From: Bacteroidales bacterium
GTDB taxonomy: Bacteria > Bacteroidota > Bacteroidia > Bacteroidales > VadinHA17
Reading direction: 5' to 3'
DNA length: 64,000 nt
Assembly (NCBI GenBank): GCA_016715075.1
Contig: JADKBK010000006.1
Location: forward strand, 95,509-159,508
Shown here: piece by piece, positions 1,773 to 57,960 of the stretch
Numbering within the stretch: the stretch's first letter is position 1
Layout: each line of letters begins with the position of its first letter
Program-made: the position numbers and the translations under genes
The notes under the pieces: generated by a model
Database searches by the model: none
The model's input: the letters and a program-made list of their open reading frames with translations, nothing else
Told to the model about the DNA's origin: nothing

Positions 1773-2951
1773 TCAGATAAGCTCAAGAGCCTGTTCAAGA
1801 TCTGCTTTTATATCAAGGATATTTTCAATACCAACGGAAAGTCTTAGCACTCCGGGTACCACACCCGTGCTTAACTGTTCTTTTTCAGAGAGCTGCTGAT
1901 GGGTAGTTGAAGCGGGGTGAATTATAAGTGTCTTAGCATCTCCCACATTGGCCAGATGGCTGATGAGCTTGAGATTATTCACTAACTTATCGGCTGCTGC
2001 TTTTCCGGCCTTTACCTTGAATGAGAGAACTCCACCGAACCCGTTTTTGAGATATTTTACAGCAAGGCTATGATATGGACTTGATGTAAGACCAGGATAG
2101 TCAACATATTCAACCTTAGGATGTTTGGCCAGCCATTGCGCCAGCCCAAGAGCATTGTCAACATGTTTCTGGACACGGAGTGACAATGTCTCAAGTCCCA
2201 GAAGAAGCAGAAAGGAATTAAACGGACTCAGGGCAGAGCCGTAATCACGAAGCCCTTCAACGCGGGCACGTATTATGAAGGCGATATTGCCGAAGATGCT
2301 GGTACCATGTCCGCCAATCCATTTGGTGGCAGATTCAACAACAATATTTGCTCCATGTTCTATTGGTCTGAAGAGATATCCGCCTGCTCCGAATGTATTA
2401 TCTACAACAAGTGGCAGATCATGTTTTTTTGCTATTGCAGCTATTGCATCGAAATCGGGAATATTGAACCGTGGATTTCCTATTGTTTCAAGATAGATTG
2501 CTTTTGTCTTGCTGTCAATCAGCTTTTCAAAATCAGCAGGCTTGTCACCGTCAACAAACTTAACTTCTATTCCAAGACGTTTGAACTGAACCTTGAACTG
2601 GTTAAATGTACCTCCATAGAGATAAGATGTTGAAACAAAATTATCGCCTGAACCAAGAATATTTGTAAGGGCAATAAACTGTGCAGCCTGCCCTGATGAG
2701 GTAGCAAGTGCTGCAACCCCACCCTCAAGTGCAGCGATCCTCTTCTCAAATACATCCGTTGTCGGATTCATCAGCCTTGTATAGATATTGCCGAATTCCT
2801 TCAGTCCAAAAAGATTGGCAGCATGTTCAGAATCATTAAATACATAAGATGTAGTCTGATAAATGGGAACCGCCCTTGAATTTGTAGTAGGGTCTACAAC
2901 CTGTCCTGCGTGTAGCTGCAGTGTGTCAAAATGTAAGTTTTCAGATGCCAT
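1773..2951 (-). CDS. metY: O-acetylhomoserine/O-acetylserine sulfhydrylase (Cys/Met-metabolism PLP enzyme), short variant
   Basis: 392-aa ORF. The N-terminus is [34 protein letters not shown], the PLP-lysine motif is [13 protein letters not shown], and the C-terminus is [10 protein letters not shown]. It appears to lack about 35 residues after the lysine motif (see finding). Confidence 0.8.
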
Positions 2952-3121
2952 AAATTTATTTTTAGATATTGATAATTATTTACCTGGTTATTGTTAAACA
3001 GTTTTAACGGCTTTTAGTTAATCCCTGCTTCAGTTTACACCTGATTTCTTTTATGATAATCAGTGATACAAAGATGCATCCGTCTCAGATTATGAGGAAT
3101 ACCCTGTTTAAGGCATTTTAT

Positions 3122-3184
3122 ATACCACAAACATGGTATGATATTTAAATATGGAGTCCGGTCAATATACCACAGATATGGTAT
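3122..3184. promoter_or_regulatory. two 7-2-7 inverted repeats (TACCACA-nn-yATGGTA), candidate NarL/FixJ-type operator pair upstream of metY
   Basis: ATACCACAAACATGGTAT at 3122-3139 and ATACCACAGATATGGTAT at 3167-3184, 45 nt centre to centre. They lie 170-235 nt upstream of the metY ATG (2951) and abut the stop of the LuxR-type regulator gene. Confidence 0.35.
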
Positions 3185-3189
3185 CGAAA

Positions 3190-3858
3190 TCAGATATGAT
3201 ACTCAATAAGGTTAATCCATCCCGCCTTAATGGCATACATAATGAGTTCGGAGACACTTGTAACACCAAGCTTCCGGAATATATTCTTACGATGTGTTAT
3301 CACGGTATGAATGCTGATATACTTTCTCAGCGCAATCTCTTTGGTAGTCAGTCCATCTGCAATAAGCCTGACAATGTCCATTTCGGAATTTGTAAGCTGA
3401 CCAGCCTCTTCTCCAGAACTCTTTTTATCATTTGGTTCAAAAAGGAGATCGAGCAGTTCATTTGAGTAGAATTTTCTGCCTTTCAGTGTAGCAGCAAGAG
3501 CTTCAAAGAACTCTTCCTTACCAGTGGTCTTAAGTATAATATTGTTGATGCCAAGATTATTCAGTTCAAGCATCTCGGCCCTGGTCAGGCCGTTCGTCAT
3601 AACAAGTATCCTAAGATGAGGGTGATTGGCTATTATCTCCTTTAACTCCGACAGGCCCGACAAATCAATAAAAGAGGGATCTGTGATCAGCAGTGAGATG
3701 TAATTCCCTGCCAGTTCTGAGGCGAGATCTTTTTTTTCTGTTACTACTTTGCTTACATAGAAACGACTGTCATTCTGAAGAATCATATTCAGGGATTCCG
3801 TGATAAGGAACTGGCTGTCGGCAATCAGAACCCCGATATTATTCTCAGTGCTGGTCAT
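3190..3858 (-). CDS. NarL/FixJ-family response regulator (receiver + LuxR-type HTH), no adjacent kinase
   Basis: 222-aa ORF. The C-terminal HTH reads LTNSEMDIVRLIADGLTTKEIALRKYISIHTVITHRKNIFRKLGV. The receiver keeps the putative phospho-Asp (LLITD), T (VMT) and K (ILK), but the first acidic pair is AD rather than DD. Confidence 0.75.
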   Translation of the reverse strand: MTSTENNIGVLIADSQFLITESLNMILQNDSRFYVSKVVTEKKDLASELAGNYISLLITDPSFIDLSGLSELKEIIANHPHLRILVMTNGLTRAEMLELNNLGINNIILKTTGKEEFFEALAATLKGRKFYSNELLDLLFEPNDKKSSGEEAGQLTNSEMDIVRLIADGLTTKEIALRKYISIHTVITHRKNIFRKLGVTSVSELIMYAIKAGWINLIEYHI

Positions 3859-55753: not shown

Positions 55754-55918
55754 ATCGCAAAGTTAATTTTTTGATTCTTTATTATTTACATATTCTTCCA
55801 CAGAATCAGGAAATTTATTAAAAAATGTTATAATTAGCATCATTATATCAAATTTTGTAAAATATATGCACTCTTAATGAAATACTTTCTATTTTTACCG
55901 GATTAAAAAATAAAATAA

Positions 55919-57232
55919 TTGACCAGGTCTGCAAAAATAATTTTGTTTATCACCTTGCTTTTATTAGTAAGTATACATCCCGGAGCTCAGGAGAACAATG
56001 TGGTGATAGCTGATAAACTTGTACCGAGCAATGTAAGGATTACGAACAATACTCCGGGAGTTCAGGATTATCCGGATGCTGAAAAGGTGATTAATTCATT
56101 TATGCATAAATGGTCAATTGCCGGAGCATCAGTTGCAGTCTCCAGGAATGGGAGGCTTATTTTTGCGAGAGGCTTTGGATATGCCGATACCATAGCCAGG
56201 ACCCCGACTCAGCCATATAATCAGTTCAGAGTTGCAAGTATATCAAAACTTATTACGGCTATTGCAGTGATGAAACTTCAGGAGGAGGGAAAACTTTCAC
56301 TTGAGGCTAAAGTTTTTGGTCAGGATGGTATTCTGAATGATCCGTATTTCTCAGGACCTAAAGATAGCCGTGTAAATGATATTACTGTAGCTCAGCTTTT
56401 AAGTCATGAGGCCGGGTGGACGCAAAGATATGGAGATCAGATGTTTATGCCAATTGTTGTTGCAGAAGCCATGAAGGTCAAGCCACCGGTGGATACAAAG
56501 ACAATTGTCAGATTTGCTTTGGATAAAAGACTTCATTACACCCCTGGCATGGGACGGGCATATTCTAATCTGGGATACAGTGTCCTTGGTCTGGTTATTG
56601 AAAAAGTCAGCGGAATGTCATATGAAAAGTATTGTAAACATTCAGTTCTGGAACCGCTGGGCATATATGATATGACTATTGCAGGGAATCTTCCAACGGA
56701 AAAAGCTCCTTTCGAGGTGACATATTATGAGCCATCTGATGTAGTTCTCAAACCTTCTATTTATGGAACCGGTGAAATGGTTACTCCAAGGTATGGCGGT
56801 AATGATATAAGAGCTCTTGGAGGTGCAGGAGCCTGGATAGCTACAGCTCCGGATCTGATGAGATTATTGCTTGCTGTCGATGGATTTCAGACACGCCCCG
56901 ACATTTTAGGCAATCAGAGCATACAGTTCATGACCGACTTAAGCAATGGCTTTGCACCAGTAGGATGGAAAGGAACTGTGATGGACGGAAACTGGTGGAG
57001 AACAGGTTCATTCCCCGGAAGTGCAGGTATGCTTAAAAGACAACCAGACGGAACAGCTTGGGTGGTGCTTCTTAATTCCAGCGCCTGGAATGGTCCTGAA
57101 ATCTATTCCTATATAAGTAATATGATGAACAAGGTAGTTGCCCGGATCGATCCTTTACCGGAATATGATCTGTTCAATAATTCAATCCCACTGCCTTTAA
57201 ATTCTGCGTTAACAGAATATACAACAAGGTAA
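55919..57232 (+). CDS. serine hydrolase, beta-lactamase/PBP4* fold
   Basis: 437 aa with a TTG start in the track, a signal peptide and the SxxK motif VASISKLITA. Confidence 0.7.
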   Translation: MTRSAKIILFITLLLLVSIHPGAQENNVVIADKLVPSNVRITNNTPGVQDYPDAEKVINSFMHKWSIAGASVAVSRNGRLIFARGFGYADTIARTPTQPYNQFRVASISKLITAIAVMKLQEEGKLSLEAKVFGQDGILNDPYFSGPKDSRVNDITVAQLLSHEAGWTQRYGDQMFMPIVVAEAMKVKPPVDTKTIVRFALDKRLHYTPGMGRAYSNLGYSVLGLVIEKVSGMSYEKYCKHSVLEPLGIYDMTIAGNLPTEKAPFEVTYYEPSDVVLKPSIYGTGEMVTPRYGGNDIRALGGAGAWIATAPDLMRLLLAVDGFQTRPDILGNQSIQFMTDLSNGFAPVGWKGTVMDGNWWRTGSFPGSAGMLKRQPDGTAWVVLLNSSAWNGPEIYSYISNMMNKVVARIDPLPEYDLFNNSIPLPLNSALTEYTTR

Positions 57233-57234
57233 TA

Positions 57235-57960
57235 ATGTGTTTCACGGTTAATGTTAATCTTATTAAAGAGGAGCTTGAAAACCGTTATGGTGCGACCTTG
57301 ATAGATCCTGATAAATACAGGCCTAGTTATTATTATCACGCATACGCACTTCCGTCAATACCGTCAGTTTGTTCCCCGGAACCCACAAAGATAAGAGTTC
57401 TGAAATGGGGCCTCATACCATCATGGACAAGGAGCCCTGAGGATGCTGACATAATACGTTATAAAACATTCAATGCCAGGTCTGAGAGTATAGATACAAA
57501 ACCCTCATTCTCCTCATCGGTAAAATCAAAACGTTGCATTATTCCGGTTAAGGGGTTCTTTGAATGGCAACATTCAGGAAAGACGAAAACCCCATTTTAT
57601 ATTTTCCATTCAAATAATGAGATTTTGTCATTAGCCGGGGTGTTCGACGATTGGGTCGACAGCAGTACAGGTGAGCTTTATCTACTTTCTCCATTATTAC
57701 AACTGATGCAAATGACCTTATGGCTGAAATTCATAACTCCGCTAAAAAGAATGCCTGTTATCCTCGATAAACAATCAGAGGAAATCTGGATAAAACAATC
57801 CTCAACCCTCTCTGATGCTCTCTCAGTTCTCAGGCCTTACCCCTCTGATCTTCTTCAGGCCCATACTGTAAGTCCGCTGATAAATGACCGGGGAGCTGAC
57901 CGCAATACACCGGAGGTTATAAAGCCATATACCTATCCTTCTGGGAATACACTCTTTTAG
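57235..57960 (+). pseudogene. SOS-response-associated peptidase (SRAP/YedK family) carrying a compensated double frameshift
   Basis: It starts MC.. (Cys2) and has WGLIPSW and FNARSE motifs. The conserved block TFSIITTDANDLMAEIHNSAK is encoded at 57684-57746 in a different frame from the open ORF, which reads LLSPLLQLMQMTLWLKFITPLK there. Confidence 0.7.

Follow-up and report, generated by a model that had tools for sequence, protein, structure and literature searches.

Introduction

Genes interrupted by frameshifts, together with some stop codons and deletions, are numerous in reductive genomes such as those of Mycobacterium leprae and Sodalis glossinidius. Free-living bacteria usually carry a few per cent of pseudogenes. 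A change of reading frame can also be used by the cell, as at the +1 frameshift sites found at stop codons in bacterial prfB (CUU-UGA-C) and eukaryotic antizyme (UCC-UGA-U). A different source of broken frames is the residual indel of Nanopore assemblies (R9.4 era), which is a single-base change, private to one assembly and enriched in short runs of one base, and which splits open reading frames (ORFs) where coverage is low. Here we analyse a stretch of 64,000 nucleotides, called the window, from contig JADKBK010000006.1 of the Bacteroidales assembly GCA_016715075.1 (positions 95,509 to 159,508). Thirteen of its genes are broken, in a manner that shares these features of residual Nanopore indels. 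It differs from them in containing a substitution, two longer deletions (69 and 123 bp) and, in two genes, insertions of the form TTCCC[T]G.

We conclude that the broken genes are very probably, in almost all cases, single-base consensus errors of a low-coverage long-read metagenome-assembled genome (MAG), and thus an ordinary artefact and not gene decay. This conclusion is drawn from further assemblies of the species, which hold intact genes and have their own, different breaks. More fully, it is based on lesions that are private or reciprocal in three MAGs of long-read style, on intact alleles in Logan contigs, on an unchanged ratio of nonsynonymous to synonymous differences (pN/pS), and on the enrichment of the lesions in homopolymers.

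Lesions in the window

The window has a GC content of 42% and contains about 55 genes, which cover 91% of the sequence. They include genes for sulfur-amino-acid synthesis, a cusCBA-type efflux system, sulfate assimilation and the use of hexuronates and pectin. Lesions were checked by tblastn of ORFs from relatives against the window, by three-frame translation, and by DNA alignment to assemblies of the same species. An earlier note on this DNA had described lesions in about 13 of some 60 genes, almost all of them beside short homopolymers, and had preferred indel error in the assembly as the explanation. All of the lesions that it listed are present, and the 13 lesioned genes stand, with a gene total here nearer 55. 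Two positions have been revised, the decarboxylase lesion moving from 18637-18641 to 18646-18647 and that of exuT from 35939-35941 to 35946-35947.

The lesions comprise 11 single-base indels, one in-frame TGA, and two deletions, of 123 and 69 bp, that keep the frame (Table 1). As had been remarked, both insertions (six) and deletions (five) occur among the single-base changes. Each affected gene has one lesion, except for the SRAP gene, which has two.

Table 1 Lesions and tandem arrays in the window. Numbers are window positions; a slash marks a deletion junction; lengths of base runs are as read on the + strand.
Feature	Site	Strand	Lesion
metY (O-acetylhomoserine sulfhydrylase, ORF 1773-2951)	2294/2296	-	123 bp (41 aa, GGVIVD...GTPGP) lost in frame
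metB-like (3873-5010)	4557-4562	-	+1 frameshift; A6 for A5 on + strand (T5 to T6 coding)
cusB (6086-7592)	6179-6182	-	extra base at 6182 beside CCC 6179-6181
cusA (9144-12923)	11805/11807	-	69 bp (23 aa, one transmembrane helix) lost in frame
Small HMA-type metal-binding gene (12992-13347)	13085-13089	-	-1 frameshift; T5 for T6
cysH (PAPS reductase, 16557-17274)	16623-16630	-	one extra base, +1 frameshift
PLP-dependent decarboxylase (17796-19249)	18645-18647	-	-1 frameshift; CC (18646-18647) for CCC
GH30 glycoside hydrolase (27510-29007)	28159-28162	-	extra base 28159 beside GGG 28160-28162
lacI-family regulator (34110-35166)	34791-34794	-	+1 frameshift; T4 for T3
exuT-like hexuronate MFS transporter (35359-36647)	35945-35947	-	-1 frameshift; GG (35946-35947) for GGG
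LarA-like gene (39249-40523)	39759-39761	-	in-frame TGA; same-species relative has TGC (Cys)
uxaC-SDR 781-aa fused ORF (40673-43018)	41525-41531	-	T7 for T8; uxaC stop lost
SRAP gene (57235-57960)	57677-57679, 57744-57748	+	T4 to T3 and A4 to A5, mutually compensating
Intergenic tandem arrays	15384-15438, 35282-35353, 38214-38238, 40579-40668, 58006-58077		

The association with homopolymers is for the most part confirmed. Eight or nine of the 11 indels alter runs of at least three bases, and such runs hold 19.4% of the bases of the window (binomial P = 2e-4 to 1e-5). In cusB and GH30 the inserted base instead adjoins a CCC and leaves its length unaltered. The context of the inserted base, TTCCC[T]G, is identical in the two genes (6176-6183 on the + strand and 28158-28165 on the - strand), which suggests a sequence-specific error mode. 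A further 41 TTCCCG sites in the window are unaltered.

Comparison with assemblies of the same species

With the repaired decarboxylase as query, a 97% match was obtained on CAXWKA010000006.1 (GCA_964268325.1), a contig that shares synteny with the window at a nucleotide identity of about 99%. The further sequences of the same species were obtained by exact look-up of proteins from the window: a second NCBI MAG, GCA_016709425.1, two more stretches of GCA_964268325.1, and the Logan contigs. The full set consists of the two MAGs and four short Logan contigs, at 97.5-99.6% nucleotide identity, and together spans window positions 1-59944. Stretches of GCA_964268325.1 are labelled L081, L086 and L114, that of GCA_016709425.1 is L082, and the Logan contigs are L083-L085 and L115. 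The Logan contigs amount to about 7.5 kb in total. Exact look-ups with adenylosuccinate lyase, KduI, the LuxR regulator, gnd, AKR, a 354-aa lipoprotein, a 328-aa oxidoreductase and UxaE gave no match, and neither did those with repaired CysH (six variants), LarA, UxaC, MetB and CusB. More distant sequences served for reading frames: a scan of species-representative genomes with CusA returned uncultured Bacteroidales and Prolixibacteraceae MAGs only, at 87% amino-acid identity or less.

Almost none of the lesions is found elsewhere. The window alone carries ten of the 11 indels, the TGA and both deletions, the uxaC indel being judged by the C-termini of homologues only. Every other assembly that covers the site has the intact form of metB, cusB, the HMA gene, the decarboxylase, GH30, lacI, exuT, both SRAP sites, LarA, metY and cusA. 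The comparison with close relatives proposed in the earlier note finds them intact at all of the window's lesions that they cover, with the exception of cysH. Look-ups of protein clusters concur, giving intact GH30 (498 aa), LacI (351 aa), decarboxylase (487 aa), HMA (119 aa) and CusA (1282 aa), and a normal SRAP motif in both other MAGs. The Logan contigs carry intact cusB and lacI, and no coding lesion of their own in their 7.5 kb.

The converse is also observed: genes that are open in the window are interrupted in the relatives. L082 is frameshifted, through differences in run length, at the positions corresponding to 6797 (cusB), 4354 (metB), 3730 (LuxR regulator) and 2808 (metY); it has four private coding indels in the regions compared, and no genes have been called there. 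GCA_964268325.1 has dozens of breaks, with 8 to 31 private coding indels per locus (L081, L114, L086). There are six 1-nt insertions within 190 bp of its decarboxylase, three shifts in cysH, a broken cysN, and fragmented AKR, KduD, KduI, GH88 and uxaC. Between pairs of assemblies, each kb of coding sequence holds 0.5-2.5 frame-breaking indels of 1-2 nt, which are attributed to both sides.

In GCA_964268325.1 the identity to the window falls in two patches, both with very dense indels: to 92-94% across the cys operon (L081 11000-17538; window about 11807-18230) and to 85% across the uxaC-KduI block (L086 14816-20467; window 39622-45228). Recombination of alleles might account for these patches, as might a consensus into which mixed strains have been collapsed.

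The pattern of private and reciprocal lesions bears directly on the alternative that the strain has lately lost selection on many genes and is in an early stage of decay, its frameshifts, nonsense codon and deletions all being real. It is true that the lesions are all in the deposited sequence, that several of the genes are annotated by NCBI as split or missing, and that the spectrum takes in a nonsense codon and two larger deletions. However, leaving cysH aside, no lesion is common to either of the same-species MAGs or to the Logan contigs, and the sister MAGs would have to have decayed independently and more densely, with six insertions in 190 bp, which is biologically implausible. A pseudogene fraction of about 22% would far exceed the free-living norm. 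The window contains no IS insertions, and all of the genes apart from SRAP have a single lesion. In Mycobacterium leprae and Sodalis glossinidius many genes are likewise interrupted, but the window differs from these genomes in that its lesions are absent from relatives that are 99% identical, whose assemblies show other lesions, and in having about one lesion per gene, no expansion of IS elements and no rise in pN/pS. We therefore consider early-stage decay very improbable. As a general explanation, which the earlier note had kept in reserve, it is unsupported; only the TGA and the two in-frame deletions may be real.

Reading frames and repaired proteins

The individual genes give further support to consensus error. 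In tblastn searches the match to one protein passes into a second frame in five genes (metB, cusB, the HMA gene, cysH and the decarboxylase), and with relatives from JGI metagenomes it does so in lacI and exuT too. Repair of a single base restores the exact lengths found in the relatives (378, 502, 119, 498, 351, 429, 470 and 424 aa), and the Pfam matches become continuous.

In metB the frame moves from -2 to -3 when compared with relatives, and L082 has a shorter run; the repaired protein has 378 aa and a single continuous Pfam match. The extra base of cusB is found neither in L082 nor in the Logan contigs L083-L085, and the repaired CusB has 502 aa, as in L083. The repaired HMA protein has 119 aa, as in both relatives. 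For the decarboxylase, GCA_016709425.1 has an intact protein of 487 aa, which in the window is present as two pieces, MBK8882395 and MBK8882396. GH30 has 498 aa in both relatives and, once repaired, in the window, where its Pfam match is then continuous. LacI is intact at 351 aa in both NCBI relatives and in one Logan contig, and a scan of JGI metagenomes with the repaired LacI found an uninterrupted gene of 351 codons in more than 20 relatives; none of the contigs in that scan was from the same species (best 84%). ExuT has 429 aa in the relative and in the repaired window protein. LarA has 424 aa in the relative, and the TGA in the window is a C-to-A substitution. In SRAP about 22 codons are out of frame between the two indels, and both relatives read GELLSTFSIITTDANDLMAEIHNSAKRMPVIL there.

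The fused uxaC-SDR ORF, in which uxaC runs on into the short-chain dehydrogenase (SDR) gene downstream of it, was assessed from homologues. All of the 120 best are 465-488 aa long and span just 60-62% of the 781-aa ORF, none of them is a fusion, and a protein search with the fused ORF gave no match in the same species. Five of the six best homologues terminate in NFIKKTN or near variants. One added base in the window gives a UxaC of 470 aa that ends in NFIKKTN.

Selection on the lesioned genes

The pN/pS of the lesioned genes is 0.089, as against 0.107 for the intact genes (Nei-Gojobori, compared with relatives, at a pS of about 0.04), and is thus not raised. The lesioned genes have therefore been under normal constraint through essentially the whole of the divergence. 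Decay that began within the last 10% or so of the branch is compatible with these values. Taken with the ten private indels and the reciprocal frameshifts, the lack of any sign of relaxed selection supports the explanation that the earlier note preferred.

Sequencing provenance

The origin of one of the relatives is documented. In Supplementary Data 3 of Singleton et al. 2021 (PMC8012365), JADJMR01 (GCA_016709425.1) is listed as MAG EsbW_18-Q3-R4-48_BATAC.459, of f__vadinHA17, g__LD21, with a coverage of 9.38x Nanopore and 3.86x Illumina. As described in that study (PMC8012365), assembly was by CANU, followed by Racon, by medaka twice, and by Racon once with Illumina reads. The MAG is listed as other than the species representative of dRep cluster 51_1 (PMC8012365), and a second MAG of this species is therefore present in the same study. 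The need for short-read polishing of Nanopore assemblies against homopolymer indels is stated in a further report (PMC9262707).

The proteins of the window are MBK8882386-430 at NCBI, with locus tag IPN67_, on a contig of 261,740 bp. Accessions, locus tags and MAG naming are of the same style as those of JADJMR01 (MBK7713xxx / IPJ37_). On the basis of this likeness, the window assembly probably comes from the same Nanopore study and pipeline.

On the basis of these observations, we consider it very probable that the window belongs to a MAG assembled at low coverage from noisy long reads. The organism is an uncultured member of the Bacteroidales (family vadinHA17, genus LD21), and its most likely source is activated sludge. 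The single-base lesions would be residual consensus errors that survived polishing, and the genes of the organism itself would be intact. Most of the errors would be miscounted short homopolymers, with in addition a context-specific insertion of a base between TTCCC and G. We infer that they arose in base-calling or in the consensus.

Points that weigh against consensus error

A number of observations do not fit this explanation so readily. The case against each lesion is an indirect one, built on the comparison of assemblies. The origin of the window in the Nanopore study is only probable, being read from similar accessions, locus tags and names. Homopolymers are favoured by genuine slippage mutations too. 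The TGA arises by substitution (C to A) and two further lesions are losses of 69 and 123 bp, none of which is typical of homopolymer error; the length of each deletion is divisible by three, for which the joint chance is 1/9, and no comparable coding deletion of middling size was found in the roughly 55 kb of the window that was compared with relatives. Finally, the frameshift in cysH recurs in GCA_964268325.1, and the accession numbering indicates that cysH is not annotated as a protein in GCA_016709425.1 either. The last two of these groups of observations are discussed in turn below.

The nonsense codon and the two deletions

It is quite possible, if short of probable, that the case is a mixed one, in which the 11 indels are errors and the LarA TGA and the deletions in metY and cusA are true strain variants or pseudogenes among some 55 genes. 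None of these three lesions is of the homopolymer type, both deletions keep the frame, and the assemblies of the relatives show no similar coding deletion. Three pseudogenes in 55 genes would lie within the normal range. The shortened MetY still matches the Pfam core Cys_Met_Meta_PP (PF01053) from end to end (positions 1-381 of 381).

On the other hand, the bases at the junctions of both deletions differ from those of the relatives, and such a mismatch resembles the fuzzy boundary of a consensus more than a clean deletion. The deletion in cusA takes out a whole transmembrane helix, in a 69-bp segment that is kept in 40 of the 40 aligned homologues and in L081 and L082, and shortens the protein from 1282 to 1259 aa. 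The 41 aa missing from MetY are present in all of the homologues, namely four of four at genus level and L082 of the same species. In both metY and cusA the pN/pS is low (0.08-0.17). These three lesions may thus be a glitch of the backbone read or of the consensus at low coverage, or they may be real strain variants. The loss in MetY lies roughly at the site of the MetY-type insertion relative to the MetB/MetC core.

The cysH frameshift

An oddity is the lesion in cysH, the only one that recurs in another assembly (GCA_964268325.1, L081 12663-12760). It lies 22 codons before the stop and removes the C-terminal ECG(C/L)H peptide. In GCA_964268325.1 the extra base is at the same place, the sequence being (G/A)AA-T-GATTTTCGC, so both alleles read (A/G)AA-TGA-T, followed by GAT TTT CGC. 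Over the 22 codons after the shift, the alleles differ at six nucleotides while encoding the same amino acids and ending at the same stop; upstream of the shift the pN/pS is 0.088 at a pS of 0.20. The conserved downstream frame and the low upstream pN/pS imply that the frameshift is not an old inactivating mutation. Judged by the numbering, cysH is without a protein accession in both NCBI MAGs of the species that have such accessions (that of the window and GCA_016709425.1); GCA_964268325.1 has none. Its orthologues in other genera are uninterrupted ORFs.

Since two alleles with differences at 20% of their synonymous sites share this extra base, the frameshift might conceivably be real and functional, with a +1 shift of the ribosome at (A/G)AA-UGA-U in the synthesis of the PAPS reductase; judged from sequence, this has very little probability. 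If it were true, the expression of the catalytic C-terminal ECGCH peptide would be conditional. The resemblance to the shifts of prfB and antizyme, which is confined to cysH, lies in a TGA in the zero frame, in reading that resumes one base on (from GAT), and in a downstream frame that is conserved in two divergent alleles. It differs from them in lacking a conserved stimulator or slippery codon, the preceding codon being AAA or GAA according to the allele, and in that the second allele is taken from an assembly very prone to error. The cysH region of that relative is full of other indels, and we estimate the likelihood of two indels coinciding within about 8 nt at roughly 7-10%. The recurrence in cysH is thus a matter of coincident errors (with this estimated likelihood), of a systematic error or, least likely, of recoding.

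The same question may be asked of the window as a whole, namely whether its tracts are contingency loci for phase variation, or sites of programmed frameshifting or stop read-through that the cell makes use of. The indels do lie at short repeats, the cysH shift recurs with its downstream frame conserved at an NNN-TGA-T that resembles +1 shift sites with reading from GAT, and the LarA TGA is aligned with a Cys codon. The tracts are, however, only 2-8 nt long, and they lie in the interior or towards the 3' end of metabolic, transport and regulator genes instead of in promoters or the 5' ends of surface genes; phase variation was rejected for this reason. Relatives (or, for uxaC, homologues) have the intact sequence at ten of the 11 sites, and there is therefore no conserved shift site. 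Selenocysteine at the LarA TGA was also rejected: no SECIS-like hairpin or other structure follows it (z = -0.41), and TGA is a normal stop, ending 19 of 52 genes. We regard phase variation or programmed recoding as a highly unlikely explanation for the lesions.

Other features of the window

Intergenic tandem arrays with units of 7 nt (CCTTAAA, TCGGACT, CACCCAG, GGTTCTG and CCAGCAC) are present in the window, together with one array with a unit of 11 nt (Table 1). Their copy number varies among the assemblies of the species.

The overlapping YeeE/YedE ORFs (50676-51787; 169 and 241 aa), which resemble one sulfur-transport gene split in two, were considered as a possible further lesion and rejected, being an ordinary pair of genes. 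The pair measures 164 and 200 aa in the relative, there are no indels between the assemblies, and the long ORF of the window begins at an upstream ATG.

Implications

If the lesions are consensus errors, as we consider very probable, about one in five genes in the deposited MAG is mis-annotated, being split, truncated, fused or pseudogenised. NCBI carries pieces of lesioned genes as separate, ordinary proteins (MBK8882395/96 for the decarboxylase and MBK8882410/11 for lacI), and the accession numbering suggests that the pieces of GH30 are annotated separately in the same way. The errors have therefore spread into the protein databases.

Multi-assembly comparison within a species, by means of reciprocal private frameshifts and an unchanged pN/pS, is a cheap and read-free way of recognising the artefact. 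Pseudogene counts from MAGs such as this one should not be taken for genome decay. For the biology of the organism, the mis-annotation would lead to wrong pathway calls from the assembly, for sulfate assimilation, methionine synthesis, hexuronate use and copper efflux.

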